A stretch of 64,000 nucleotides of DNA from an uncultured Alphaproteobacteria bacterium (GTDB lineage: Bacteria; Pseudomonadota; Alphaproteobacteria; CAAHEQ01; UBA3637), in contig CAKPYH010000001.1 of assembly GCA_934202735.1 (NCBI GenBank), forward strand, positions 75,614-139,613, written 5' to 3'. Of this stretch, positions 1 to 36,148 are shown in pieces (the first letter of the stretch is position 1; every line of letters starts with the position of its first letter). The translations under genes and the position numbers were made by a program. Under the pieces are notes generated by a model. The model saw only the letters and a program-made list of their open reading frames with translations, ran no database searches and was not told where the DNA came from.

Positions 1-2676
1 CACCCCGTAATTCACGCGGGATCCCGGTTCCACCCGATCATAACCCGTAAAGCGATTGGCTTCAAACAGGTTTGTATCATCAAAATCAAAGACCAAACTG
101 TCCACATTGGGAATCTTGTCCGAATTGCCCCCGTTCGGAGCCGCCACCAACATCACCACAGGTTCCAAAATCTGGGTAGATCCCACATCGGTTCGCACAA
201 ACGGATAATGCAGGGTCGCCGATACGTTCGGATAAATCCGTCCCGTGTGATAGGTCTCATCGGCCGGCCGACCGACCATCAGGTTTCGTCCGGTATCAAT
301 GCTGTATCCGTCGGCCCGCACAAAGCCGGTAAAATCAATCGCAACCCCGCCGGGGCCGATATACGGCAAAGTGGCCCCTTGTGTCACAGACAAGCGATCG
401 GACTTAAACCGTTCCCGCGTATGATACAGGGCCGCATTCACGGCCGAAAAACCATACAGGCCCAATCCGGCCACCGGGGCCGTATTATATTGCCAATCCA
501 ACACCGGCAAGATGACGGGGATGGTATCACTGTTCACGCCGTATTGCAGGCTTTGGAACCCGTAATTCTTCAAGCGGAAGTAATTACGATTACCAAACCG
601 TTCGGCCGTTAAATGCGATGTTAAAAAGGATTGTGTATCATCTACGCCGGGAATCCGATACCGCCGAAAATATGTATCCGATGAGACACGGAACCATTCA
701 CCGCCCAATCGCCATTTATCGTTGACATCATACTCAAACGAGGCCCGAATATGACCTTGCTTGCGTTCCTGATCCCGATCACGGGTACCGCTGGCATGTA
801 CATCTATCCGCCCGGCGGAAAAGACCCCTTGATAATCCACCAACCCTAACGGAAAGTGTTCGGGGGAAACAATCGGTGTCAACAACAGGTTTTGATTATC
901 GGCCACATCTACAAAAAACGGCAAGGAGATTCCTTTGCGCATTTCATGCGTGCTGAACAATCCCGGAGGTAAAAATCCCGTGCGCCGTTTGACCGTAAAG
1001 TCCGGCATACGCCAATAAGGCACATAAGCCACCGGCACATTCTTGACATCCAAGAAAGCATGTTTGTAAATAAGATCTTTGGCCGCTTGATCATGATGCA
1101 CGGACACGGCCCGCAACTGCCACAGCGGAGCCGACCCTTCACAACGATCACAGGGTGTATAAACGGCTTCCGTTAAATGAGAGTCTCCATCGGCAAAACG
1201 TTCCATACGTTCCGCCCCCATGTAAGATCCTTCATATAAATAGACATCGGTTTTACCGGTATCCAAGGCCGACAAATCCCCGGCCAATTCCCCATGGGTT
1301 GTTTTCATCGTTGTCCCATCGGACATTTCAATCGTCAACGGATCGGGGGCGGTGATTTTATTCGTGCCGCGATTATATAAAATCCGGTCGGTTTTGACCG
1401 TCATGGCATCCTGCTTTAACACCACATTTCCCCGGGCGGCCAGTTCATTCGTTTTTTGGTTGTATGAAACGGCATCGGCTTCAAAATCCACCGGAGCCTG
1501 CGTATCTGTTTTCACCATTTTAATCCCCACGGCTTCTGCCGATCCGGCACAGATCAGGATCATCGCCGCCACCGGTAATTTTGTCCGAACCCGCCGCCAC
1601 AATCCGGCCCAACCCGTATACAGGAACAAAGCCGGAGCCGCCACATTCAGTACCACCAGAATTAAAAACCACAAATTCTTACCGGCCATATTTTCAAAGG
1701 CCAACGCTAACGATTGCACAATCAAAGCCCCTCCGACAGCAGCATACACGCGTCCGGCTTGTCCCCGGCGATTATAATATCCCGACAACACACCAAAAAT
1801 CACCAAACACAAAAACGAAAGATTATACAAGGGTTGTATCAACCGTTTGACCAACTCCACTTTGTGCTTGCGCCACAAGGGCATAGAGCCTTTGGTATCA
1901 TCGGGGGTTGCCTGCCACAGCTGACGTAGCGACAATTCGCGTACATCGGCCGATCGGGTTCCTTTTTCATTTTTATCCGAAAACATCATCGTATGCTTTT
2001 CAAACTTCAAGATAGAAAATTGATGAGTTGCCGGTTGATATTCTTGGCGGGTCCCGTCATAAAAGACAACACGAATCCCGTCTGTTTCCTGATACACGGC
2101 CCCGCTTTTGGCAGACAAGACGGCCACCCGATCGGGTTTTTTGCGATCATAGGCCAACACCCCCCGAATCTGCCCATCCGGCAAGCGTTCTTTGACATAC
2201 AGGGTCAGGCCGTTATCAAAAGAATTAAACTGTCCTTCTTGCAACAGCAGGTGCGACAAGTCATTTTTAATTCGCCACCGCATTTCCCGCATACTGGTAT
2301 TAGCGGCCGGAATCACGGATAAAGACAAAGCATACCCGATAATTGCCAACACCACCGCCAATCCGAATATCGGTCGCATAATTTGCCGCGTATTCATACC
2401 CACGGCCTGCATGACCATCAATTCTTTATCTGCCTGCATGCGCAGCAAAGTGAACAATGACACGGCAAACAAGGCTAACGGAGACAAAATTTGCAAAAAG
2501 TTCGGCAACACCAACACGGTCAATTTCAAAAACAGGCCTGCGGATACGCCTTTGGTCACAATCATATCAATCATGCGCAACGATTGCGTCAACCAAACCA
2601 AGACCGTCATACTGGTCAACACCAGGATAAACCCGATGATTATTTGCTTTAATGTGTATTTATCTAATATCTTCAT
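1..2676 (-). CDS. LptF/LptG-family LPS-export permease reading in-frame (no stop) into an LptD/OstA-type LPS-assembly protein; 3' end lies beyond window start
   Basis: Manual reverse-complement translation from ATG at 2676 gives MKILDKYTLKQIIIGFILVLTSMTVLVWLTQSLRMIDMIVTKGVSAGLFLKL..., a YjgP/YjgQ-type multi-TM permease of about 360 codons. It continues ...NLWFLILVVLNVAAPALFLYTGWAGLWRRVRTKLPVAAMILICAGSAEAVGIKMVKTDTQAPVDFEADAVSYNQKTNELAARGNVVLKQD ... AYVPYWRMPDFTVKRRTGFLPPGLFSTHEMRKGISLPFFVDV ... EANRFTGYDRVEPGSRVNYGV, which is LptD-like, to position 1 without a stop. Frame was verified codon by codon at 1501-1680, 901-960 and 1-60. The ORF track lists no complete minus-strand ORF of 60 aa or more over this span, consistent with one open frame leaving the window. 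Confidence 0.7.
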   Translation of the reverse strand, partial: MKILDKYTLKQIIIGFILVLTSMTVLVWLTQSLRMIDMIVTKGVSAGLFLKLTVLVLPNFLQILSPLALFAVSLFTLLRMQADKELMVMQAVGMNTRQIMRPIFGLAVVLAIIGYALSLSVIPAANTSMREMRWRIKNDLSHLLLQEGQFNSFDNGLTLYVKERLPDGQIRGVLAYDRKKPDRVAVLSAKSGAVYQETDGIRVVFYDGTRQEYQPATHQFSILKFEKHTMMFSDKNEKGTRSADVRELSLRQLWQATPDDTKGSMPLWRKHKVELVKRLIQPLYNLSFLCLVIFGVLSGYYNRRGQAGRVYAAVGGALIVQSLALAFENMAGKNLWFLILVVLNVAAPALFLYTGWAGLWRRVRTKLPVAAMILICAGSAEAVGIKMVKTDTQAPVDFEADAVSYNQKTNELAARGNVVLKQDAMTVKTDRILYNRGTNKITAPDPLTIEMSDGTTMKTTHGELAGDLSALDTGKTDVYLYEGSYMGAERMERFADGDSHLTEAVYTPCDRCEGSAPLWQLRAVSVHHDQAAKDLIYKHAFLDVKNVPVAYVPYWRMPDFTVKRRTGFLPPGLFSTHEMRKGISLPFFVDVADNQNLLLTPIVSPEHFPLGLVDYQGVFSAGRIDVHASGTRDRDQERKQGHIRASFEYDVNDKWRLGGEWFRVSSDTYFRRYRIPGVDDTQSFLTSHLTAERFGNRNYFRLKNYGFQSLQYGVNSDTIPVILPVLDWQYNTAPVAGLGLYGFSAVNAALYHTRERFKSDRLSVTQGATLPYIGPGGVAIDFTGFVRADGYSIDTGRNLMVGRPADETYHTGRIYPNVSATLHYPFVRTDVGSTQILEPVVMLVAAPNGGNSDKIPNVDSLVFDFDDTNLFEANRFTGYDRVEPGSRVNYGV

Positions 2677-3596
2677 TCAGAATCCTTTGACTTACTATAC
2701 GACAAAGGATGAGATTTTTCAACTATCTTTTTTAATCTTTCGGGTAAAATATGCGTATAGACTTCGGTTGTGGCAATATCGGCATGCCCCAACATCTGCT
2801 GAACCGACCGTAAATCGGCATCGTGCGCGACCAGATGACTGGCAAAAGAATGACGCAAAACATGGGGCGAGACCCGTTCGGGATTCAACCCCGCCTGCAA
2901 GGCCACATGCTTCAAATGCTTGAAGAACCCATCACGCGTCAAGTGCCCTGTTCGCCCGGCGGACGGAAAGAGCCATTTATTGATACGACCGATTTTCAAG
3001 CGACTTTCCCGCAACACCAACCAATCTTCCAACGCCGCTACCGCCGGTGCATTCAAAGGCACTTGTCGTTCTTTTTGCCCTTTACCGACCACGGTCAACA
3101 TTCGGTTATCCGGCGGCAAATCCGCATGAGCCGTCACCGCTTCCACGGGCAGGCCGACCAACTCGCTGACCCGCAACCCGGACGCATACAAAACTTCCAA
3201 CATCGTGTACATACGGCGATCCGTTTGCGCCGCCACCCGCAACAAGGTGGCCACTTCTTCTTCACTTAAATATTTTGGCAAAGATTTACCCACCTTGGGC
3301 GACATCAGGTAATCGGTCGGGTTTTGTGTAATGATATTTTCCGAAAACAAATAACGATAGTACTCACGCAACGCCGATAACCGTCGGGCTTGCGTTTTGA
3401 CGGCCAGGCCGTTTTGGGCCAGTTGGTGCAGATAAGTTTGCAAGTCTTTGGCCGTTGCCCGGTTCAGACACGAATGATGCGCTTGTAAAAACGCCGTTAC
3501 GTCCGTCAGATCCCGCCGATAAGAATCCACCGTCCGGGGTGAAGCACCGCGTTCAGCCACCATCATTTCCAGAAACGAATCAATATATTTGTCCAA
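2673..3596 (-). CDS. tyrosine site-specific recombinase, XerC/XerD family (307 aa)
   Basis: MDKYIDSFLEMMVAERGASPRTVDSYRRDLTD... and the C-terminal HVLRHSFASHLVAHDADLRSVQQMLGHADIATTEVYTHI catalytic region (R..H..R..Y). Its stop TGA (2673-2675) overlaps the ATG (2674-2676) of the downstream lptG-like gene as ATGA. Confidence 0.8.
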   Translation of the reverse strand: MDKYIDSFLEMMVAERGASPRTVDSYRRDLTDVTAFLQAHHSCLNRATAKDLQTYLHQLAQNGLAVKTQARRLSALREYYRYLFSENIITQNPTDYLMSPKVGKSLPKYLSEEEVATLLRVAAQTDRRMYTMLEVLYASGLRVSELVGLPVEAVTAHADLPPDNRMLTVVGKGQKERQVPLNAPAVAALEDWLVLRESRLKIGRINKWLFPSAGRTGHLTRDGFFKHLKHVALQAGLNPERVSPHVLRHSFASHLVAHDADLRSVQQMLGHADIATTEVYTHILPERLKKIVEKSHPLSYSKSKDSE

Positions 3597-5094
3597 CGGT
3601 TTTGACCCACCTTTCGGTCAATAAAGCCCGCCGATTTTCGGCCGGAAGCACGGGGGCCAGCGCATCCAAAAGATTCTGTTCCAAAGCCGATGACCGATTC
3701 AACAAAATGACGGCGTTTAACACCGCCTTTCCTACCGGTCCGTCCCGGACCTGTCGCGCAACGGATTCGGCCACTGCCGGCGGATAATCCCGTACCCCGC
3801 TACCTGTCGGAATCCGGGTCAAATCCATCTCTGATACAGGCCATGCCGCGGGGGCGATATTCCATACCGACCGACAAAAGGCATCACGCTCACATGCGGC
3901 CAACTCCCTGTCCGCCGGTTCGGGGACCTGATCCGTCAACAGGGAAATCAAGACGGCCGTCCCGGGTACTTTTCGGTGAGCTTCGGCCCGGGCCAACAGG
4001 TCCGCCTTATCCGCCAAAGTCCACACGGCGCGCAAGGCTTTTTCCGATCGTATCAAAGGGGCCGTATCATCTCCCGTCATCATCAAAACCACCGGAGCCA
4101 CAGCCACCAATGCTGCACCGTCCGAGACACTACGCACATAATCTCGCACACGGGAACGCCGTTGTTCCGGGGGAACTGTCATCGCCTTCTGATACAGACG
4201 TGCCCGATATACGGGACCTTCAGTGAGTTTTGTGTTTTTCACCGGTACAGCCAACACACGTTCCCAATCCGTTCGGTTCAGGCCGGCCCGTTCGGCCGCG
4301 GTCAGGCGTACTGTTTCGCCTACATCCGGTGCCAAAGCCAACACACGCCATTGTCCGCGGTTCAAGGGCAACGTCAACACCCGATCGCCGAACACCCGGG
4401 CCGCCAAAGGTAATTCCCACACGGATATATCTGTCGCCGACAAACCGGTCGGCATCGGGTCGGTCGTCCGTTGATAAGCCCGATTCCCCGCAGCGGTCCA
4501 CAAGGCATGTCCGTCCGTTCCGGCTTCCCGATAGACATCAAATGCCAAGGCGGCCGGGGCTTCGTCTCCTGCCACATCGGCACAGACGGCTCGGATCCAC
4601 CGTTCATCCGGCCCAAACGCCGCCGGTGTCTCGCCGGCACACGCATCCTGATACCGGCCCAACGCAAACAAAGCGGTCGCCCGATCCCGGCGTATATCAT
4701 CGGTCCGGCGGGTCGGCGGTATTTGATCCGTCAACATCAAAACATCTTCAAACAAGCCTTGTGTCAGCAAGACATCGGCCCGGGCCCGCCAATAGGCTGC
4801 CTGTGCCGTATCCAGGCTTTTCACACCCCCTACATCGGTCATCAGGACCATGCGCACTATGGCTCGTTCAGCCCCCGATAGCGGCAAAGACTGTACGGCA
4901 TTCAGGTGTTGAATCACCGTTTCTGCCACAGGTTCGGTTCCAAAGACGTCGGCCGTAAAGGGCGTTTTTATGCCAACGGTTCCCTGCCCTAAACCTGACA
5001 AGTCATCTACCACCACTTCGGCTAGGGCAGTCCCACTCCAACACAGAGCCGACAAGAGCAAGCCCCACAAGCCTGCGTGTTTATTTTTGCCCAT
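3580..5094 (-). CDS. hypothetical exported protein (504 aa, GC-rich, N-terminal signal peptide)
   Basis: MGKNKHAGLWGLLLSALCWSGTALA|EVVVDD... Long ORF with Ala/Arg/Asp-rich composition and no family motif I recognise. Start overlaps the xer gene end by 17 nt. Confidence 0.6.
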   Translation of the reverse strand: MGKNKHAGLWGLLLSALCWSGTALAEVVVDDLSGLGQGTVGIKTPFTADVFGTEPVAETVIQHLNAVQSLPLSGAERAIVRMVLMTDVGGVKSLDTAQAAYWRARADVLLTQGLFEDVLMLTDQIPPTRRTDDIRRDRATALFALGRYQDACAGETPAAFGPDERWIRAVCADVAGDEAPAALAFDVYREAGTDGHALWTAAGNRAYQRTTDPMPTGLSATDISVWELPLAARVFGDRVLTLPLNRGQWRVLALAPDVGETVRLTAAERAGLNRTDWERVLAVPVKNTKLTEGPVYRARLYQKAMTVPPEQRRSRVRDYVRSVSDGAALVAVAPVVLMMTGDDTAPLIRSEKALRAVWTLADKADLLARAEAHRKVPGTAVLISLLTDQVPEPADRELAACERDAFCRSVWNIAPAAWPVSEMDLTRIPTGSGVRDYPPAVAESVARQVRDGPVGKAVLNAVILLNRSSALEQNLLDALAPVLPAENRRALLTERWVKTVGQIY

Positions 5095-9799: not shown

Positions 9800-10312
9800 T
9801 TATTCTGCTTTTGCAGTGGCCTTTTTGGCTTTTTCGGCTTTCGGTTCTTTTTTGGCCTTAGCGGGTTTCTTTTCCGCTTTAACTTCTTCGGCCGGAGTTT
9901 CGGCTTCCGCCGCGACTTCCACGACTTGCCCCGAATCTTTACCTTTGGCCGTTATATCGCGGTCCACCAATTCCACAATCGCCATAGGGGCGCAATCACC
10001 AAAGCGGAAACCCGCTTTTAACACGCGCACATAGCCACCTTTACGTTCTTTGTACCGCGGCCCCAAAACGGTCAGCATTTTTTCCACGGCCTTGTCATCA
10101 CGCAGGAAAGACAGCAATTGCCGCCGGATATGGAGTGTATTTTCTTTACCTTTTGTGACCAATTTTTCAAAGATTGGCCGCAATTCCTTGGCTTTCGGCA
10201 AAGTTGTTTTAATTTGTTCATGCTTGGTCAATGCGACCGCCATATTGGCGAACATAGACCGCCGATGAGCAATTTTTTTATTTAATGTTCTTTTTTTAAA
10301 ACCGTGACGCAT
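9800..10312 (-). CDS. rplQ: 50S ribosomal protein L17 with about 50-aa Lys/Ala/Glu-rich C-terminal extension
   Basis: [47 protein letters not shown]... then ...[37 protein letters not shown]. Start chosen at MRH (ATG 10312) rather than the track ATG 10336. Confidence 0.9.
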
Positions 10313-10432
10313 TTTGTTTTTCCTTTCATGTTGCAAGGCCTTGAACGCGCAAAGCCGATAGTGTTAGCCGGAACATCCACACCCGTCAGGCAATGTAAAG
10401 TCCGGACGCCGGAGCCGTCCCCGGCGATTTGA

Positions 10433-11449
10433 TTACGATTCCGAATCCACGGTTGCGGACAAGGCTTCCAAGTCTTCGGGAGGCCACCCTTCCACCTGCA
10501 TACCCAGGTGCAAGTCCATCGTTGCCAGCAATTCTTTGATTTCGTTCAAGGACTTGCGGCCGAAGTTCGGTGTCCGCAGCATTTCGGATTCCGTTTTTTG
10601 GACCAGGTCGCCAATATAAATAATGTTGTCGTTTTTCAGGCAGTTGGCCGAACGGACAGACAATTCCAGTTCATCCACCTTTAACAACAGGTTTTTGTTG
10701 AACGGTAATTCGGCGATCTTGTCTTCTATGGTCGCTTCTTCCGGTTCTTCAAAGTTGATAAAGACTTTCAACTGTTCCTGCAAAATACGGGCCGCCAAAG
10801 CAACGGCATCTTCCGGCGTAATCACGCCGTTTGTTTCCACCGTCAGGTACAGTTTATCATAGTCGGTTTGTTGACCCACACGGGCATTGACCGTCTTATA
10901 GATCACCGACTTGACCGGCGAGTAAATAGAGTCAATCGGCAACAATCCGATCGGACAATCTTCCGGCCGATTTTGTTCTGCCGTCACATAGCCTTTACCG
11001 GTGTTGACCATCATTTCAATAGAAATACTGGCCCCTTTATCCAAGGTACAGATGACCAAGTCCGGATTCATCACTTCCACCGTATGATTGGTCACAATCT
11101 GACCGGCCGTCACGACCCCCGGACCCGTCGCATTCAAGTAAATGCGTTGCGGTCCTTCGGCATCCACGCGCAAGGCCAATGATTTAATGTTCAGGATAAT
11201 TTCCGTCACATCTTCACGGACCCCGGGAATGGAAGAAAATTCATGCAGAACACCGGCGATTTTGATAGCCGTCACCGCGCCACCTTGTAAGGAAGACAAC
11301 AACACCCGCCGTAAAGCATTTCCCATTGTCGTTGCAAACCCGCGTTCCAACGGTTCCACAACCATGGTAGCCTTACGCCCCGGAATGATTTGTTCGTCCG
11401 CGCATTTGTCCGGTTTAATCAATTCCTGCCAATTTTTCTGTATCATCAT
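10433..11449 (-). CDS. rpoA: DNA-directed RNA polymerase alpha subunit
   Basis: 338 aa. ...[23 protein letters not shown]... N-terminal domain and alpha-[32 protein letters not shown]. Confidence 0.92.
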
Positions 11450-11512
11450 AAGAGATTCCCCTTTTGTTAAGAAATGTTATCCGGGACGTGTTGCCGTCCC
11501 GGGCGTTAAAGA

Positions 11513-11908
11513 TTAAACCCGACGGCGTTTACGCGCACGACAACCGTTGTGCGGCAAGGCCGTAATGTCTTTGATGGACGTAATTACCAATCCGGCGGCT
11601 TGGAAAGCCCGCAACGCGGATTCACGACCGGTCCCCGGACCCGTCACATACACTTCAACCGTTTTCACACCGTGTTCCATCGCTTTTTTCGCGGCATCAT
11701 CGGCGGCCATCTGAGCCGCATACGGCGTAGATTTACGGGAACCTTTGAATCCCTTTAACCCTGCGGAAGACCAAGAAATCGCATTTCCTTGCGTATCCGT
11801 AATGGTAATCATTGTGTTGTTAAAAGAAGAATTGACGTGAGCAACACCCACGGCGATGTTCTTTTTATCGCGGTTTTTTGTCCGCGCATTTGTTTTTGTG
11901 TCAGCCAT
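11513..11908 (-). CDS. rpsK: 30S ribosomal protein S11
   Basis: ...[46 protein letters not shown]... Confidence 0.93.
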
Positions 11909-11926
11909 TAAACTATTCCTTTCGCC

Positions 11927-12304
11927 TTACTTCGTGACTTTCTTCTTACCGGCAATGGCAATCGCCTTACCTTTACGGGTCCGCGCATTGGTGTGCGTCC
12001 GTTGTCCGCGCACAGGCAACCCTTTACGGTGGCGCAAGCCGCGATAGCAGCCCAAATCCGTCAACCGTTTGATATTCAAAGAAACTTCACGACGCAAGTC
12101 CCCTTCTACATGATAGGAACTGTCAATCAACTCACGAATTTTTAACGTTTCGTCATCCGTCAGGTCACTCACGCGTTTATGTGCGGGAATGCCCACTTTT
12201 TCGCAGATTTCTTCTGCTTTTTTCCGTCCGATACCGTAAATATATGTCAAGCCAATGACAACCAATTTACCTGTCGGAATGTTTACACCAGCAATACGTG
12301 CCAA
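11927..12304 (-). CDS. rpsM: 30S ribosomal protein S13
   Basis: [38 protein letters not shown]... Start assigned to TTG at 12304 preceded by GGAG with an 8-nt spacer. The ATG at 12370 in the ORF track would add 23 non-conserved residues. Confidence 0.85.
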
Positions 12305-12421
12305 GGTACTTTCTCCATTAAGCCTATAAAAAACAATAAAATTTAAGTCCAGACCCTTCCATAAAGACACCTGAACGAGCGGGAATTATACACTATTTTT
12401 CGTCCGATGTCAAGTCCGAAT

Positions 12422-13108
12422 TCAATATCCTACTATTTTTCTTATTTTTTCACTAACGACATCAATGGGTCCCGTCCCATCAACGCACACCAAAAGCCCC
12501 TTTTCTTCGTAGTAAGGTATGACCGGAGCCGTTACAGAGCGGTAATTGCGAAGTCTAGATACTACCGTTTCATAGGTATCGTCCGCCCGCCGTGTAAATT
12601 CTTTACCGCCACAAATGTCGCACACGCCAAACACTTTTGTCGGTTTGAATTTCTCATGATACAACGCACCACACTTGGCACATTGACTGCGCCCAATGAT
12701 ACGATCAATCACATATTCATCGGGAACTTGCAACAAAATAACTAAATCCACCCCCAGATTATTTTCCACAAACACGGGTTTTTGTTGCATTTGTTCAAAA
12801 ACTTTAGCCTGATCCAACGTCCGCGGGAAACCGTCTAAAATATAGCCTTTACGGTTTTCGGGTTCCAATAACTTGGCTTCTATCCGCCCGACAATAAATT
12901 CGGCAGGGACCAGGTTGCCTTTATCAATAATGGCCTTAATGGCATTGCCTTCCGGGGTTCCGGATGTCGTGGCTTCGCGCAACAACTCACCGGCCGAATA
13001 GGTATGCAAGGCTAACTTTTCGGACAAAATGGCGCTTTGCGTCCCTTTTCCACTGCCCGGAGGGCCCATCATAATAATATGCCGTGGAGGAACTTTATTT
13101 TCTGCCAT
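12422..13108 (-). CDS. adk: adenylate kinase (long form with Cys4 LID domain)
   Basis: HIIMMGPPGSGKGTQSAILSEK... and CAKCGALYH...CDICGGKEFTRRADD. Located between secY and rpsM. Confidence 0.9.
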   Translation of the reverse strand: MAENKVPPRHIIMMGPPGSGKGTQSAILSEKLALHTYSAGELLREATTSGTPEGNAIKAIIDKGNLVPAEFIVGRIEAKLLEPENRKGYILDGFPRTLDQAKVFEQMQQKPVFVENNLGVDLVILLQVPDEYVIDRIIGRSQCAKCGALYHEKFKPTKVFGVCDICGGKEFTRRADDTYETVVSRLRNYRSVTAPVIPYYEEKGLLVCVDGTGPIDVVSEKIRKIVGY

Positions 13109-13109
13109 T

Positions 13110-14438
13110 TTAGAACCGTCCTTTCAATTTTGCTTTTTTAATCAAACTTTCGTATTGATGTGCCAACAAGTGAGATTGAATTTGATTGATAGTATCCATT
13201 ACCACCGACACCACAATCAACAAAGACGTACCGCCCAACACAAAAGGCACATTAAATTTTTCCATCAACAAGTGCGGCAACACGCACAGAATCGTTAAAT
13301 AGGCCGCCCCCAGGACCAACAACCGGGTCATCACAAACCCCAAGTAATCCGCCGTATTTTTCCCCGGCCGAATACCGGCCACAAAACCACCTTGTTTTTT
13401 CAAGTTATCGGCAATTTCATCGGGATTGGTAGACGGTTGCAGGCTGGCATAAAAGAATGTAAAGAAGACAATCAAAACACCGTAAATGGTCATGTACAAC
13501 CACCCACCGTTAAACAAAGACCCCCACAAACCGTTGGTCAGGTCGCCCCCGAAAATCTTGGCAAACAACGGCGGGATTCCCAAAATCGTCCCGGCAAAGA
13601 TCGGCGGCATCACACCTACCGGATTGATTTTTAAGGGCAGATAAGAATTCGCATTTTGCACCATACGGGCCCCCATTTGGCGTTTCGGATATTGCACGAT
13701 AATACGCCGTTGCGCCCGTTCAAACATCACCACCAAATAAACCACCGCGATGACCAGGAACAGGACAAACAACTCTACCCCCACAGACATAGCCCCGGTC
13801 CGACCGCTTTCAAACAAGCGGGCAAACGCCATCGGAATCCCCGATACAATCCCGACAGTAATCAACAACGATGAACCGTTGCCGACACCGCGGGCCGTGA
13901 TTTGGTCGCTGAGCCAGATCACAAACATCGTGCCCCCCAACACGGACACAACCGTAGATAATTCAAACAAGCCGGCAGACGGCATCACAACGGCCCCGCT
14001 GGCTTCCAACCCGCGCGCAATCCCGTAGGATTGGAACACCGTCATCACAACGGCTAAATAGCGGGTATATTGATTCAACCGGCGCATACCTGATTCGCCT
14101 TCTTTGCGCAGGGCACCCAGTTGCGGAAAAATGAAACTGGCCATCTGAATTAAAATAGAGGCCGTAATATACGGGATAATGTTCAGAACAAAGATAGACA
14201 TCCGTTCTAATGCTCCCCCCGTAAAGGAGTTAAACATCCCCACCAAACCGCCGGCATTTTCACCTTGAAAAAAGCCACCGATAACTTGCGGGTTAACCCC
14301 CGGAACGGGGACATACGTCCCCAACCGGAAGACAATCAAGGCCAAGAGGGTGAACAACAATCTCTTTTGCAGATCTTTCGCCTTTGAAAAAGCCGAAAAA
14401 TCTACACTATTCGCCATTTTTTCTGACATTGAAACCAT
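13110..14438 (-). CDS. secY: preprotein translocase subunit SecY
   Basis: 442 aa multi-TM protein in canonical position after rplO. ...GGTSLLIVVSVVMDTINQIQSHL... C-terminus. Confidence 0.92.
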   Translation of the reverse strand: MVSMSEKMANSVDFSAFSKAKDLQKRLLFTLLALIVFRLGTYVPVPGVNPQVIGGFFQGENAGGLVGMFNSFTGGALERMSIFVLNIIPYITASILIQMASFIFPQLGALRKEGESGMRRLNQYTRYLAVVMTVFQSYGIARGLEASGAVVMPSAGLFELSTVVSVLGGTMFVIWLSDQITARGVGNGSSLLITVGIVSGIPMAFARLFESGRTGAMSVGVELFVLFLVIAVVYLVVMFERAQRRIIVQYPKRQMGARMVQNANSYLPLKINPVGVMPPIFAGTILGIPPLFAKIFGGDLTNGLWGSLFNGGWLYMTIYGVLIVFFTFFYASLQPSTNPDEIADNLKKQGGFVAGIRPGKNTADYLGFVMTRLLVLGAAYLTILCVLPHLLMEKFNVPFVLGGTSLLIVVSVVMDTINQIQSHLLAHQYESLIKKAKLKGRF

Positions 14439-14458
14439 TTGAACACCCTCTCCTTATC

Positions 14459-14986
14459 TTAAGCCTTTTTTGTTTTTTTCACTGTTTTTTCTTTTTTAGA
14501 TGTTTTCACACCTTTTGTCAAGACAGTTTTCTTTTTCGGTTCAACGATGACCTGACCGCCGGCCTTTTCAACCGCCGCAATAGCGGCTTTGGTGGCCCCG
14601 GCAACCCGAATGGTGGCTTTGGACGCAAAATCACCCTTACCCAACAAACGTACGCCGTCTTTGGCATTTTTAATCAGGCCCGCTTCCATCAAAGCCACGG
14701 CATCAATTTCGTTGCCCAAGACTTTGGCATCAATCGCTTTCTGGATTTTGTCCAGATTGATTTCCGCAAATGTCAGACGGAAGATATTGTTAAAACCGCG
14801 TTTCGGAGCCCGGCGATAGACGGACATTTGCCCGCCTTCAAACCCGTTGATGGCTACACCGGTCCGGGCTTTTTGGCCCTTGAACCCGCGACCACCGGTC
14901 CGGCCTTTACCCGAACCGACACCCCGTGCCACACGCATCAGTTTTTGACGCGCGCCTTTGTTATCACGAATTTCATTTAACTTCAT
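14459..14986 (-). CDS. rplO: 50S ribosomal protein L15
   Basis: [43 protein letters not shown]... Confidence 0.92.
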
Positions 14987-14998
14987 TACAAAATCTCC

Positions 14999-15607
14999 TT
15001 ATTCAGCCACTTCTTTGGACGTTTCTTCCCCATCGCGGCGACCAACGATTTCGCCAACCTTTTTACCGCGGCGTGCAGCAATGTTCCGTGGAGAGTGTGA
15101 TCCGTTCAAAGCGTCAAATGTTGCCCGAACCATGTTGTGCGGATTGCTGGACCCTGTGCACTTGGCCACAACGTCTTGAATCCCCATGGCTTCAAAAACG
15201 GCACGCATCGGACCGCCGGCAATGATACCGGTACCGGCCGGAGCCGTTCGCAGCGTTACCTGACCGGCCCCAAAGTGTCCCAACACATCATGATGCAGTG
15301 TCCGCCCTTCTTTCAAGGGGACGCGAATCAAATGACGGCGTGCACGTTCCGTTGCCTTTTTAATGGCATCGGGTACTTCTTTGGACTTGGCATGCGCAAA
15401 GCCCACACGACCTTTTTGATCACCCACAACCACCAATGCGGCAAAAGCAAAACGCTTACCGCCCTTAACGGTTTTGGACACACGATTGACATGCACCACC
15501 CGATCAACAAATTCATCGGCCGGCCGTTCGGCACGGGTGTCTTCATTCCGATCCTTACGGGGCCGGCGTTTCTTTTCTTGCTTTTCTTCTTTTTCTAATT
15601 CAGCCAT
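14999..15607 (-). CDS. rpsE: 30S ribosomal protein S5 (with charged N-terminal extension)
   Basis: ...[50 protein letters not shown]... A 12-nt gap to rplO leaves no room for rpmD. Confidence 0.92.
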
Positions 15608-15616
15608 TTGTTCCTC

Positions 15617-15967
15617 CTAGAACGATAACCCGGCTTCACGGGCTGCTTCGGCAATCGCCTTGATACGACCGTGGAACAGATAACCGCCCCGATCAAACAC
15701 GACTTCTTTAATACCGGCCTGCTGCGCACGGGCGGCAATCAACTGCCCGACGGCGGCGGCACCGGCCACGGTAGAACCTTTCGCGGTGATTTCTTTGTCT
15801 TTGGAAGACGCAGACACCAAAGTTTTTCCGGATTTGTCGTCAATAATCTGTGCATAGATATTCTTTTCCGAACGATGCACGGACAAACGAACGCGACCGG
15901 CGGCTTTTGTCTTCAACGCATAACGAACACGCGCTTTCCGACGTTCAAATTGTTCAATGTTTTTCAT
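15617..15967 (-). CDS. rplR: 50S ribosomal protein L18
   Basis: ...[33 protein letters not shown]... Confidence 0.92.
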
Positions 15968-15978
15968 TTGACTACCCT

Positions 15979-16506
15979 TTATTTTTTCTTACCTTCTTTG
16001 CGCAGGACGGTTTCAGTATCATACTTCACGCCTTTGCCTTTATACGGTTCCGGAGCCCGATAAGAACGGATTTCCGATGCCACTTGACCCAACAACTGTT
16101 TGTCGGCACTGGACAACTCAATGGTTGTCTGGACCGGGCAAGCCGCTTTCACACCGGCCGGCAGTTGATAGTCAATATCATGGCTGAACCCCAACGTCAG
16201 TTTCAGGTTTTGCCCTTGTACTTGTGCCCGATAACCGACACCGATCAGTTCCAATTTTTTCGTGAAACCTTCGGAGACACCTTTGACCAGGTTGTGAATG
16301 TTGGCGCGCACGGTTCCCCACAAAGCGCGATGTTCACCACCGGCGGGACGGACAATCAATTCATCACCTTCCTGCTTGACAATCACGCCATGCGGAATGT
16401 GTGTTTTCAATTCGCCCAGTTTCCCTTTGACGGTAATTTCTTCGGCACCGATAACGGCGGTTACACCGGCCGGCATTTTCACAGGATGTTTTCCAATACG
16501 AGACAT
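15979..16506 (-). CDS. rplF: 50S ribosomal protein L6
   Basis: [33 protein letters not shown]... Confidence 0.93.
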
Positions 16507-16520
16507 GGTTTAAAATCCTC

Positions 16521-16919
16521 CTAGAATACCTTGCAAAGCACTTCGCCGCCCAAGTTGGCTTGACGTGCTTCGTTATCGGACATAACACCCGACGGGGTTG
16601 ATAACACATAGATGCCCAAGCCGTTATAGAACTTCGGCAAATCTTTGACTTTGGAATATACACGCCGACCCGGTGTAGAAACCCGAGAGATTTCTTTAAT
16701 CACCATTTCATCTTCGTGATATTTCAATTCTACTTTGAATTCGTCAACACCCGGACGGACGCTGACGCGTTCATAACCGCGAATATAACCTTCCCGTTTC
16801 AAGACATCCAAAACGCTGGCGCGCAGGTTAGATGCCGGGACGATTACAAAACTTTTATGGGACATGCCGCCGTTGCGGATGCGGGTCAGCATATCGCCCA
16901 AAGGATCTGTCATAGACAT
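16521..16919 (-). CDS. rpsH: 30S ribosomal protein S8
   Basis: [32 protein letters not shown]... Confidence 0.93.
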
Positions 16920-16931
16920 TTGTCTTTCTCC

Positions 16932-17237
16932 TTACCAACTGGATTTAACCATACCCGGAATTTGACCTTCATTGGCCAACTTGCGTAATTGGATACGGCT
17001 GAGTTTTAATTTTCTGTAAACACCGTGCGAACGGCCCGTCAATTCACACCGATGGTGTATTCTGACGGCCGACGAGTTGCGGGGCAACTTCGCTAATTGA
17101 AGAGTCGCTTCAAACACCTGTTCGGGTGTAGAGTTTTTATCTTCAATAATCGCTTTCAAGGCCGCGCGTTTCTTGGCATACTTTTTAACCAAGGCTTCGC
17201 GCTTTTTATTTCTGTTGATTGAACATAATTTAGCCAT
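16932..17237 (-). CDS. rpsN: 30S ribosomal protein S14 (101-aa type)
   Basis: [31 protein letters not shown]... Confidence 0.92.
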
Positions 17238-17248
17238 GTGATTTTCCT

Positions 17249-17794
17249 TTACTTCATGAACGGCATACCGAATCCGGCCAACAAAGCCTTAGCTTCTTTG
17301 TCCGTCTTGGCGGTTGTTCCGATGACGATATCCATACCGCGGATTTTGTCAACGGTGTCATAGTTGATTTCCAAGAACACGATTTGTTCTTTCAAACCCA
17401 TCGCATAATTCCCGTGGCCGTCAAAACTGTTGTTCGGAACACCCCGGAAGTCGCGTACACGCGGCAAAGCCATCGTAATCAACCGATCCAAAAATTCATA
17501 CATTTTTTCACGGCGCAACGTTACTTTGCAACCGATAGCCATACCGGCCCGCAACTTAAAAGTCGCAATGGATTTTTTGGAATAGGTCAACACCGGTTTT
17601 TGCCCGGCAATGGCTTCCATATCTTTCAAGGCACCTTCCAAGGCCTTACGGTCTTCGGTGGCTTCCCCGATACCCATGTTCAGGACGATCTTGTCCAATT
17701 TGGGAACTTCCATTTTGTTTTTGTATCCGAACTCTTTAACCAAAGCCGGCACAATGACATCTTGATATTGTTTTTGTAATCTTGTCATGTTCAT
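17249..17794 (-). CDS. rplE: 50S ribosomal protein L5
   Basis: ...[30 protein letters not shown]... Confidence 0.93.
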
Positions 17795-17799
17795 TTCCC

Positions 17800-18114
17800 T
17801 TATTTGCCAATGACTTCGCCGGATTTTTTGGCCACCCGGACTTTTTGACCGTCATTGATTTTCATACCGACACGTGTCGCTTTGCCCGTTTTCGGGTCAA
17901 TCAAAGCCACATTGGACACATGAATGGGGTGTTCTTTAGACACGATACCGCCCGCGTTTTCCTGAGTCGGCTTGGTGTGGCGTTTCACCATATTGATCCC
18001 GCGGACAACCACTTTGCTGTCTTTGGGCATCGCTTGGATCACTTCACCCGTTTTACCTTTATCGCGACCGGCGACAACAATCACCTGATCACCTTTTTTG
18101 ATTTTCATCGTCAT
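17800..18114 (-). CDS. rplX: 50S ribosomal protein L24
   Basis: [32 protein letters not shown]... Confidence 0.92.
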
Positions 18115-30609: not shown

Positions 30610-30696
30610 TTTCTTTTTTCCTTTGGTTGAATTTAAGACTGGACATTTTTGATTATACTCTGTATAATGGAAAAAAGCAAACTGAAAAGGAAAAAA

Positions 30697-31656
30697 ATGC
30701 AATATCTGGATTTTGAACACACCTTAATGGAAGTGGATACCAACATTGAAGCGTTAAAAATCACTCAATCCCAGCGGGGTTTAGACATCGCGGCCGAAAT
30801 GGAACGCTTGACGACCAAACGGGAACGCGTCCTGCGTCAAACCTACAAAAATTTGACCCCTTGGCAAAAGTCTTGCGTGGCCCGGCACGAAGCCCGCCCA
30901 CATACCCGGGACTATCTGCGTACGATTTTTACGGATTTTTTCCCGTTGCGCGGGGACCGATTGTTTGCGGAAGACGCGGCCATTACCGGCGGATTAGCGA
31001 AACTGAACGGTCAAACCGTCATGGTCATCGGACATGAAAAGGGGCATGATACCGACTCCCGCTTGGCACATAATTTCGGCATGGCCCGACCCGAAGGCTA
31101 TCGCAAAGCCGAACGCCTGATGCACTTGGCCGAACAATTCGGGATTCCTGTGATTACATTGATTGATACGGCGGGGGCCTATCCCGGCGTGGATGCGGAA
31201 GAACGCGGCCAAGCCCGGGCCATAGCCACCACGATTGAAGCCGGCTTAAACCTACGGGTTCCCTTGATTGCCTGTATCATCGGCGAAGGGGGCAGCGGCG
31301 GAGCCATTGCTTTGGCAACGGGCAACAGTATTCTGATGATGGAAAACGCTATTTATTCGGTTATTTCCCCGGAAGGGTGTGCGTCTATTTTATGGAAAGA
31401 TTTCAAGTATGCCCCCCAAGCGGCGGAAATTTTACATTTGACGGCTCAGGATTTATCAGAAAAAGGGCTTATTGACGAAATTATTGCCGAGCCTGTCGGT
31501 GCGGCTCATCATTTTCCGGACCAAGCCATGCAAGCGGTCGGAACGGCCTTGTCGCATCATGTGAAAAAATGGGCCGATATACCGGCCGATGAATTGATCC
31601 GCACACGTCAGGACAAGTTTCTGGCCATGACCCGGGCAGGAGAAATCAAAAAATGA
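30697..31656 (+). CDS. accA: acetyl-CoA carboxylase carboxyltransferase alpha subunit
   Basis: MQYLDFEHTLMEVDTNIEALK...GIPVITLIDTAGAYPGVDAEERGQA...IIGEGGSGGAIALA... Start ATG 30697 is preceded by AAAGGAAAAAA. Confidence 0.92.
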   Translation: MQYLDFEHTLMEVDTNIEALKITQSQRGLDIAAEMERLTTKRERVLRQTYKNLTPWQKSCVARHEARPHTRDYLRTIFTDFFPLRGDRLFAEDAAITGGLAKLNGQTVMVIGHEKGHDTDSRLAHNFGMARPEGYRKAERLMHLAEQFGIPVITLIDTAGAYPGVDAEERGQARAIATTIEAGLNLRVPLIACIIGEGGSGGAIALATGNSILMMENAIYSVISPEGCASILWKDFKYAPQAAEILHLTAQDLSEKGLIDEIIAEPVGAAHHFPDQAMQAVGTALSHHVKKWADIPADELIRTRQDKFLAMTRAGEIKK

Positions 31657-32753
31657 GTCGCTTGTTATCGCGGTATATTTTCAAACAGTTTGCATTGATT
31701 TTTTTCGCCACCTTGTTTGTTTTAACGGCCACGGTCATGTTATTTGATGTGATTGAATTACTCCGCAATGCCTCCAAACGTGAAGGCATTGCTTTTTGGG
31801 ACATCATGGTGTTGGCGGTCTTAAAATCGCCTCAGATGATTCATATTATCTTGCCTTTCGTATCTTTGATTGCGGGCCTGTTGTTTTTATTCAAGTTTGA
31901 TCGATCGTCCGAACTGATTGTGATGCGGGCGGTTGGCTTGTCGGCATGGAACTTTATCGGACCGGTTGTTTTGTTCATTACCGCCATCGGAATCTTTGAC
32001 ATCACGCTGTTTAATCCTGTTGCGGCCATGACGGCCCGCCGATACGAACGGATGGAAGAACGTATCGGCCTGACAAACTCTACGCCGTTTACCTGGTCAT
32101 CCGAAGGCTTGTGGTTGCGTGATGTTCGGGATAATGAAGTCTTGGTGATTCGGGCATCGCGGGTCCGTCAAGAAAATCAGAATGTCTTGCTGGATAATGT
32201 GTCGGTGTTTGAATTAGACGATGATAACGTATTCTTGCGCCAAAATGAAGCGGCAATCGGCACCTTGAAAAACGGTATTTTAGCTCTGCACAACGCCTTT
32301 GTGATGGACCCGAAACGCGAAAGCGGTGCCGTTCATCAACAGGTTTTATTTGAAACGGACCTGAGCCTGGAACGCATTTTGGAAAAGTTTGATGAACCGC
32401 AAACGATGTCTTTTTGGCGATTTCCGCGATTTATTCGGTTTTTGAAAGAATCCGGCTTTTCCTCTGCTTTGCATGAAATGTATTGGCATGAACTCCTGGC
32501 TTTTCCCAGCATCCTGATTGCCATGATTCTGATCAGTGCCGTATTCGCCCTGCCCCCGTGCAACCGTCAAGGTCATGCGTTAGTGCGGGTGTTGGCGGCC
32601 TTATTATGCGGCTTTACATTATATTTTATGACGCGTGCCACGAATGTATTGGGACAATCGCAAAGCCTGCCCATGATATTGGCAGCCTGGGGCCCGGCAT
32701 TGGTGGCCATTCCGTTATGCCTGTCGGCCTTGTTGCACCTGGAAGACGGCTAG
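31653..32753 (+). CDS. LptF/LptG-family LPS export permease (second paralogue in window)
   Basis: 366 aa. MSRLLSRYIFKQFALIFFATLFVLTATVMLFDVIELLRNASKREG... YjgP/YjgQ-type with 6 predicted TM segments and a central periplasmic domain. ATGA overlap with the accA stop. Confidence 0.8.
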   Translation: MSRLLSRYIFKQFALIFFATLFVLTATVMLFDVIELLRNASKREGIAFWDIMVLAVLKSPQMIHIILPFVSLIAGLLFLFKFDRSSELIVMRAVGLSAWNFIGPVVLFITAIGIFDITLFNPVAAMTARRYERMEERIGLTNSTPFTWSSEGLWLRDVRDNEVLVIRASRVRQENQNVLLDNVSVFELDDDNVFLRQNEAAIGTLKNGILALHNAFVMDPKRESGAVHQQVLFETDLSLERILEKFDEPQTMSFWRFPRFIRFLKESGFSSALHEMYWHELLAFPSILIAMILISAVFALPPCNRQGHALVRVLAALLCGFTLYFMTRATNVLGQSQSLPMILAAWGPALVAIPLCLSALLHLEDG

Positions 32754-32879: not shown

Positions 32880-32954
32880 GACCCTATCATCTAACGGTTA
32901 GGATACGGCCCTCTCAAGGCCGGCATACGGGTTCAAATCCCGTTAGGGTCGCCA
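32880..32954 (+). tRNA. tRNA-Glu (anticodon CUC), 75 nt including CCA
   Basis: Cloverleaf folded by hand. Acceptor GACCCTA/TAGGGTC. D-arm ATCT/GGAT with U13-G22. Anticodon stem CGGCC/GGCCG with loop CTCTCAA, so anticodon CTC. 4-nt variable loop (a Glu identity feature). T-arm ACGGG-TTCAAAT-CCCGT. Discriminator G plus CCA. Confidence 0.75.
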
Positions 32955-35860: not shown

Positions 35861-36148
35861 AATAATCCATCCCTTAAAAACATATATTGGCATGTTAGTA
35901 GAATTACATATTAAAGTCAACAAAATAATTTTGCTAATAATTCACATATAGCCCACATGACTGCCCCATCACCTGCCCCCTTTTACAGGCATTGTTTTTG
36001 ATTGACAAGAACTGATTTGTGTACATAAATCCCGGGATAAAAATGCTATTTTTTACAATTTGACAAGCTTTTGAATAAACAATCCTTGTTTTCTTGTTGC
36101 TTTTTGAAAAATATGTATGTATAAAGATCTTGTGAAAGGTGAAATGAG

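Follow-up and report, generated by a model that had tools for sequence, protein, structure and literature searches.

LptFD: a conserved fusion of the lipopolysaccharide transport proteins LptF and LptD in gut and rumen Alphaproteobacteria, joined through a predicted internal signal peptide

Introduction

LptF and LptD stand at opposite ends of the lipopolysaccharide (LPS) bridge, in different membranes, and reach them by different routes: LptF by co-translational insertion, LptD by export, periplasmic chaperones and the β-barrel assembly machinery (BAM). How, then, can the two be encoded by a single open reading frame (ORF)? The question is raised by a 64,000-nucleotide stretch of DNA from an uncultured alphaproteobacterium (GenBank assembly GCA_934202735.1, contig CAKPYH010000001.1, positions 75,614 to 139,613), referred to below as the window, in which an LptF/G-type permease and LptD are read as one continuous frame on the minus strand. 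The frame, here named lptFD, is a genuine and conserved gene fusion and not an artefact. The sequence of its junction suggests that it encodes a polyprotein, probably cut by signal peptidase I into LptF and mature LptD.

The fused frame and the identity of its domains

Starting at the ATG at 2676-2674, the frame runs to window base 1 through 892 codons without a stop (translation of window 1-2676), as the original prediction from the sequence alone had stated, and all of its coordinates proved correct. The features of the frame are:

1..2676, minus strand: fused lptFD ORF, codons 1-892 of 1075, with the last 183 codons past the window edge; no in-frame stop, and LptF and LptD hidden Markov models (HMMs) match the same ORF.
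1594..2676, minus strand: LptF permease domain, residues 1-361, with transmembrane (TM) helices TM1-3, a periplasmic β-jellyroll at about 150-233 and TM4-6; recognized by PF03739, TIGR04407, hydropathy, the AlphaFold2 (AF2) model, and sequence and fold matches to LptF in the PDB.
1042..1494, minus strand: LptD N-terminal β-jellyroll, residues about 395-545; recognized by PF03968, the PVDFEAD columns, AF2 strands at 397-507 and the start of the jellyroll in PDB LptD chains.
1..1041, minus strand: first two thirds or so of the LptD β-barrel, the remainder lying beyond the window edge; recognized by PF04453 (3e-38) and by Foldseek matches to the LptD of LptDE complexes.

The Pfam family PF03739 (LptF_LptG) spans residues 6-361 with an E-value of 4e-67 and a score of 227, against a cutoff of 27.9. 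Concerning the choice between the two members of this family, the permease had initially been proposed as an LptG; profile and sequence comparisons identify it instead as LptF. The NCBIfam LptF model TIGR04407 scores 234.8 bits, above its cutoff of 230, while the LptG model TIGR04408 scores 82.9 bits, far below its cutoff of 240, and a sequence search of the PDB gives 62.7 bits for LptF chains and 30.4 bits for LptG chains. A separate lptG lies elsewhere in the window (see below). Six hydropathy maxima are found in this part, at residues 12-30, 54-78, 103-121, 279-297, 310-328 and 335-353, so that the permease shows the six TM helices with a periplasmic jellyroll between TM3 and TM4 that are expected of an LptF.

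On the LptD side, PF04453 matches residues 641-892 with an E-value of 3e-38 (132.8 bits against a cutoff of 22.4), although the ORF is truncated by the window edge. The match to PF03968 (LptD_N) at residues 399-443 is weak, with 21.2 bits against a cutoff of 20.4. The jellyroll opens with a near-invariant PVDFEAD motif, and three cysteines, C509, C512 and C1040, are invariant in the fused family; they are presumably the counterparts of the interdomain disulfide cysteines of Escherichia coli LptD. The computed size of the precursor is 1075 aa and about 121 kDa, rather than the roughly 130 kDa first estimated, and its two parts amount to 382 aa and 42.9 kDa for LptF, and 693 aa and 77.9 kDa for mature LptD.

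An AF2 model built from a 42-sequence alignment (mean predicted local distance difference test, pLDDT, 78; predicted template modelling score, pTM, 0.48) gives an all-helical LptF with a β-sandwich at 150-233, a jellyroll from residue 397 and a large barrel. Foldseek aligns it with the solved LptD of LptDE complexes (E-values from 4e-41 to 1e-19, target TM-scores of 0.56-0.79) and with LptF/G chains (target TM-scores of 0.53-0.71). Residues 366-390, which make up the junction, have a pLDDT below 50, and the model predicts neither a seventh helix packed into LptF nor a fixed arrangement of the two domains.

Conservation of the fusion

In metagenome-type sequence, two usually separate genes that appear joined in frame are a classic symptom of an indel error, and the frame could in principle owe its continuity to a stop or indel missed near 1540-1600; a related metagenome-assembled genome (MAG) does carry a break, elsewhere in the ORF. 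The frame was compared with close homologues (the 120 best protein clusters, at 48-66% identity to the fused protein) and with the corresponding loci of one genome per species of the Genome Taxonomy Database (GTDB), comprising 42 fused-clade and 36 outgroup loci. The complete 1075-aa protein is available in a sister strain (P0001), and differs from the window product only by M372V; the two genes share 99.5% DNA identity, with 13 of 2676 nt differing, 12 of them synonymously and 1 non-synonymously. P0001 is present on 5 contigs, four of which come from four different sequencing runs, each with the same ORF.

Both PF03739 and PF04453 are present in all 120 best clusters, 117 of which have a length of 1050-1099 aa. 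At the locus level, the junction between LptF and LptD is in frame in 42 of 42 cases, drawn from many different studies. Of these loci, 38 hold a complete ORF, at least 1077 codons long; contig ends clip another three, and one (L030) is disrupted later, inside the barrel. The junction varies in length and sequence among the members and is nevertheless always in frame, and more than 117 protein clusters at the stated identity are all of about 1080 aa. Because the fusion is conserved in this way, the artefact reading is refuted and retains next to no probability. The expectation that a read-through of this kind would not be accidental is thus borne out, and the comparison with relatives that had been proposed as a check for a lost or missed stop finds none.

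The fused-clade loci belong to gut or rumen alphaproteobacterial MAGs from human (Hadza and others), ruminant, rabbit and other hosts. At the level of the order, the clade may be RF32-like. An exhaustive search of 50%-identity cluster representatives also yields remoter fused proteins, P0121, P0123, P0127, P0166 and P0249, at 43, 39, 32, 30 and 27% identity, respectively, from alphaproteobacterial MAGs where the source is named. In every one of them, the junction combines a K/R-rich and a hydrophobic stretch with a small-x-Ala motif.

In the rumen MAG RGIG1600 (L030), the ORF is interrupted within the barrel at 12637..12640, leaving pieces of 884 aa and 198 aa; the break reflects an error in the MAG or else a pseudogene.

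In current databases the proteins of about 1080 aa are named simply 'LptF' or 'LptD'. No description of a natural LptF-LptD fusion was found in the literature, where only engineered fluorescent fusions turned up. As far as found, the fusion architecture is hence undescribed so far, the component families being ordinary LptF and LptD.

The junction resembles an internal signal peptide

The junction reads ...LFLYTGWAGLWRRVRTK / LPVAAMILICAG / SAEA | VGIKMVKTDTQAPVDFEAD, with LWRRVRTK immediately before its core and SAEA|VGIK immediately after. It divides into three regions:

1579..1605, minus strand: basic cytoplasmic tail of LptF serving as n-region, GLWRRVRTK, residues 358-366; K/R-rich columns kept in the 120 homologues.
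1543..1578, minus strand: h-region LPVAAMILICAG, residues 367-378; seventh hydropathy peak, with hydrophobicity kept and sequence not, and low AF2 confidence.
1531..1542, minus strand: SAEA as c-region, residues 379-382; signal peptidase I is predicted to cut behind A382, at the step from nt 1531 to 1530.

The topology of LptF is N-in/C-in. With six helices, its basic tail is therefore placed in the cytoplasm and the seventh segment (hydropathy peak at 367-385) would be oriented N-in/C-out, i.e. as a signal peptide is, which agrees with the coherent topology originally envisaged for the fusion. The junction presents the features of a Sec signal peptide, namely a charged n-region, an h-region within the range of about 7-15 residues, a polar c-region and small residues at positions -1 and -3. 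Across the 120 homologues it drifts in sequence and length, while a basic stretch, a hydrophobic stretch of about a dozen residues and a signal peptidase I site are retained. The 15 residues preceding the hydrophobic core have a median net charge of +4, and the uncharged stretch formed by the h- and c-regions has a median of 17 residues, at least 4 of which belong to the polar c-region.

The conservation of the putative site follows the (-3,-1) rule, the classic signature of signal peptidase I sites. Position -1 is occupied by Ala in 115 of the 120 homologues and by Ser in the other 5, with a column entropy of 0.25, and position -3 hosts A (74), V (20), S (17) and T (8) and nothing else. Position -2, in turn, has an entropy of 3.84 and is the most variable column of the region, neighbouring columns having about 3. 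P/G/S/T residues abound at positions -4 to -6, and Pro never occurs at +1. These compositions were read from unbiased alignment columns, as the scripted site finder favours Ala by construction. The predicted cut falls 11-18 residues ahead of PVDFEAD across the family (12 residues here, with a family median of 13), and in stand-alone LptDs an N-terminal signal peptide precedes the same motif, a qualitative comparison, the control being too noisy for statistics. Mainly because the (-3,-1) motif survives in an otherwise drifting linker, we take the site as probably used: the junction looks like a still-functional internal signal peptide.

A lipoprotein reading of the stretch LICAG as a lipobox was discarded, since its -1 residue would be Ile and the Cys is not conserved.

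About a quarter of the family members show Gln at +1 (AQA|QIK...). This recalls the 'Q-rule' that is reported for signal peptidase I substrates of Bacteroidetes (PMC5837995), and may be a coincidence.

Processing of the fused product

The reading we favour, with a probability of roughly 0.78, is that lptFD encodes a polyprotein cleaved after A382 into LptF and mature LptD. One 1075-aa, 121-kDa precursor would be translated, and its LptF part inserted co-translationally with six TM helices and a cytoplasmic C-terminus, the basic tail staying in the cytoplasm. The hydrophobic junction segment would then enter the translocon N-in/C-out and start the export of the 693-residue LptD moiety, whereupon signal peptidase I would cut after the conserved A-x-A (A382). 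Mature LptD, of about 78 kDa, would be freed and, with the help of chaperones and BAM, assembled in the outer membrane (surA directly follows lptFD), and LptF, of about 43 kDa, would retain the spent signal peptide as a C-terminal seventh helix. Any selective benefit may lie in 1:1 co-expression of the two proteins or in obligate co-translational export of LptD.

Several points weigh against this polyprotein reading. The two products are predicted from the sequence, and the call of the cleavage site rests on alignment statistics. To our knowledge, bacteria rarely cleave an internal signal peptide that follows a polytopic protein. The conserved small-x-small motif could serve otherwise, e.g. 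in helix packing, which would however leave the hypervariable -2 position and the P/G/S/T residues at -4 to -6 unexplained. Finally, searches of the window and the fused loci, a small fraction of the genomes, returned nothing significant for lptA or lptC with the LptD N-domain HMM. Concerning lptB, phmmer with an E. coli LptB query found no match in the 64-kb window or the fused loci; it matches only outgroup loci, with one strong, orthologue-level match (L044, 279 bits). Weak matches to the LptD N-domain HMM in four loci (L032, L043, L014 and L016) proved to be hpf genes, which encode a ribosome hibernation factor and have no lpt genes next to them.

The signal peptide-like character of the junction had been noted in the original prediction, which took it for a seventh TM helix holding the LptD domain in the periplasm; the first part of this proposal stands, while the permanent anchor is the less likely fate of the segment, as the near-invariant (-3,-1) motif points to cleavage. 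Were the fusion to remain uncleaved, an α-helical inner-membrane domain and an outer-membrane β-barrel would be united in one chain, a combination for which we know of no other protein, and which we regard as doubtful here. The LptC-like tethered jellyroll of LptD would in that case dock on the jellyroll of LptF, forming a minimal covalent LPS bridge without LptC or LptA. Several observations agree with such an arrangement: the TM helix, short linker and N-edge of the jellyroll follow each other in an order that mimics LptC; models of LptC and LptA match weakly at residues 385-455 (the LptC models on the fused protein staying below cutoff, with 17.8 against 21 for Pfam and 18.6 against 38 for TIGR04409); no LptA, LptC or LptB gene is found in the window or within 10 kb of lptFD at the 42 fused loci, again a small genome fraction; and the support for cleavage is not direct. 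Nevertheless, a conserved (-3,-1) pair around a hypervariable -2 is what selection for signal peptidase I cleavage would be expected to leave, and a plain anchor needs neither. An LptC-like anchor would have about 20 hydrophobic residues, no peptidase motif and packing on LptF/G, and the junction is not built in this way: its hydrophobic core is short, given the polar residues included in the uncharged stretch. Judging from the known dimensions of LptD, a tether of 11-18 residues would moreover keep the barrel to within some 10 nm of the inner membrane, less than a normal periplasm, and the low confidence of the AF2 model, both at the junction and in its pTM, lends the arrangement no structural backing. 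That LptFD is uncleaved, or cleaved only after assembly, so that one polypeptide sits in both membranes and the seventh helix replaces the LptC anchor, accordingly seems improbable to us.

The remaining possibility is that LptD is mainly made from a start codon of its own inside the junction, the read-through fusion being minor or irrelevant. The codon at issue, which had been put forward as a possible separate LptD start, is the following:

1561..1563, minus strand: internal ATG, M372; GTG in the sister strain, and not supported as a separate LptD start.

In the window the ATG at 1563 is preceded by GGTGGCGGCG, and an ATG, GTG or TTG of some kind is present in the n-region at 34 of 41 fused loci. 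However, codon 372 is GTG (Val) in the 99.5%-identical strain, and it lies inside the hydrophobic core, so that a protein starting there would begin with MILICAGSAEA, without an n-region. The 120-homologue alignment has no conserved Met column in the junction, a start codon in the n-region together with a Shine-Dalgarno (SD)-like motif occurs in only 2 of 41 fused loci, and 7 of 41 lack any candidate start. An unfused relative (L041, see below) has, by contrast, a clear SD and ATG. A separate LptD pre-protein would carry a signal peptide at its own N-terminus, and the signal-like segment is found at residues 358-382 of 1075. As there is no stop, every ribosome on lptF must run on into lptD. 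Internal initiation as the main source of LptD is thus very unlikely, and the polyprotein cut by signal peptidase I remains the preferred explanation.

Gene neighbourhood and origin of the fusion

The gene upstream of lptFD and the second member of the LptF/G family in the window are:

2673..3596, minus strand: xerD-like tyrosine recombinase; NF001399 at 341.5 bits against a cutoff of 279, and Pfam Phage_integrase.
31653..32753, plus strand: lptG, unlinked from lptF; TIGR04408 at 224.9 bits against 74.1 for the LptF model, and PF03739 at 2e-54.

The TGA of the xerD-like gene (2675-2673) overlaps the ATG of lptFD (2676-2674) in an ATGA, an overlap that had been pointed out before and is real. 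The tight spacing is conserved: in 40 of 42 fused loci, the xerD stop is placed at -17 to +3 nt relative to the start of lptFD. Most fused loci have an AAGGA-type SD-like motif 5' of the lptFD ATG. The gene order hyp504-xerD-lptFD-surA-folD is kept throughout the fused clade.

The first of these genes encodes in the window a 504-aa protein (3580..5094, minus strand) with an N-terminal signal peptide, for which no Pfam or NCBIfam match was found; it adjoins xerD-lptFD upstream in most fused loci.

The lptG gene gives the only second LptF/G-family match in the window, 29 kb from lptFD. Its start overlaps accA (30649..31656, plus strand) by 4 nt, and a tRNA-Glu(CTC) follows at 32880..32954, so lptG has moved here into an unrelated operon. 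HMM mapping found no LptG-like gene within 10 kb on either side of lptFD in the fused clade. The outgroup, composed of Acetobacteraceae (Acidocella, Acidiphilium, Roseomonas, Rhodopila), Elioraea, Asaia and unclassified MAGs, has lptF, lptG and lptD as separate genes in 36 of 36 loci, with surA after lptD in 34 of them.

Some outgroup loci of the Acetobacteraceae had appeared as candidate LptG-LptD fusions, given open stretches of 1083-1148 codons that end in LptD. HMM mapping puts lptG in another frame; what is open upstream of lptD is an alternative frame, which we attribute to a presumably high GC.

An arrangement between the two is found in L041 (34% identity, GC 37%), with the order xerD, lptF, lptD, surA. 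Here lptF and lptD are separate and lie 4 nt apart (10900..11330): lptF ends in ...NKGKC-TGA and, 4 nt on, lptD begins with an ATG that has its own AAGGAAAA Shine-Dalgarno, its product carrying an ordinary N-terminal signal peptide, MMRLILLAILCCFIVQPCFA|KD... The xerD gene lies 210 nt upstream of lptF and does not abut it. L041 likely represents the pre-fusion, intermediate state, and from such a layout a small indel or the loss of a stop codon would suffice for the fusion. Its origin may be pictured as starting from the ancestral order lptF-lptG-lptD; lptG would next have left the cluster in this lineage, making lptF and lptD neighbours, and the lptF stop would last have been lost, so that the cytoplasmic end of LptF ran on in frame into the Sec signal peptide at the N-terminus of LptD. 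A rough neighbour-joining tree of LptD domains, drawn with no support values, places the gut clade, P0121 and P0123 in one fused lineage with L041 outside, its deeper nodes being unresolved. P0249, which has no motif match, was left out of this tree, and the tree does not separate whether P0127 stems from the same event.

Other features of the window

On the minus strand at 33581..35923 there is a 780-aa protein made up mostly of ankyrin repeats (Ank_2, 1e-43), which are unusual in bacteria; it suggests an interaction with a eukaryotic host. Ribosomal protein genes for L17 (9800..10336) and S5 (14999..15607), both on the minus strand, are confirmed by Pfam, and the ORFs up to about 27.7 kb look, from their size and position, like the rest of a ribosomal protein cluster, including a 692-aa ORF of the size of fusA. 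An Rfam scan of the window returned only a tRNA.

The region past window base 1 can be followed in a locus of the same species (L081), where lptFD-surA-folD is followed at 9991..17869 by six ORFs without Pfam matches and, further on, by a 532-aa ORF with a faint DUF8043 match and two VirB8-domain genes. The region may be a type IV secretion-like cluster.

Significance

A natural, long-conserved gene that makes both proteins from one precursor implies that a polytopic inner-membrane protein can carry a 78-kDa outer-membrane barrel as its exported tail. The fusion would set the synthesis of LptF and LptD at 1:1 and release LptD beside its own inner-membrane partner. It is hence a natural construct bearing on whether LptD is exported co-translationally or post-translationally, on the processing of internal sites by bacterial signal peptidase I and on the spatial coupling of Lpt bridge assembly. 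The annotation as plain 'LptF' or 'LptD' hides this architecture in databases. The Lpt pathway is not overturned unless the uncleaved reading is true, which would mean a covalent, minimal LPS bridge needing neither LptC nor LptA.

Comparison with known systems

With respect to the canonical Lpt system, i.e. lptF, lptG and lptD of E. coli and the alphaproteobacterial order lptF-lptG-lptD-surA, the families and folds are the same: LptF has six TM helices and a jellyroll, LptD a jellyroll, a barrel and the invariant cysteines, surA lies downstream and lptG is present in the genome. In the canonical system, LptF acts together with LptG and LptB2 as an ABC transporter, and LptD is plugged by the lipoprotein LptE. 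The fused lineage differs in that lptG is relocated, lptF and lptD form one ORF, the predicted signal peptide of LptD is internal and follows a polytopic membrane protein, and xerD is joined to the operon upstream. LptC, which has an N-terminal TM anchor and a jellyroll docking on LptF, shares the order and orientation of elements with the junction plus the LptD N-domain, whereas the hydrophobic segment of lptFD is shorter and has a conserved peptidase site.

Viral polyproteins offer a parallel in mechanism. Flavivirus polyproteins are processed by host signal peptidase (PMC6756788), and NTB-VPg of tomato ringspot virus is cut after a 14-aa hydrophobic segment (PMC5010249); they share with lptFD a multi-pass precursor, short internal hydrophobic segments, small residues at -1 and -3 and a signal peptidase cut, predicted in the case of lptFD, on the far side of the membrane. 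Unlike lptFD, they belong to viruses and the eukaryotic endoplasmic reticulum, so that the analogy is one of mechanism only, with no homology.

The nearest mechanistic precedent known to us is FbcH of Bradyrhizobium japonicum, a cytochrome b-c1 precursor that is reportedly cut at an internal signal peptide (Thony-Meyer et al., 1989/1991). It is likewise a single alphaproteobacterial ORF in which a polytopic protein ending in the cytoplasm is followed by an internal signal peptide and an exported partner of the same machine. FbcH is reported to be processed into two proteins; lptFD shares its ORF layout, with a cleavage predicted from the conserved site. Both FbcH products reportedly stay in one inner-membrane complex, whereas LptD is an outer-membrane barrel that must leave.

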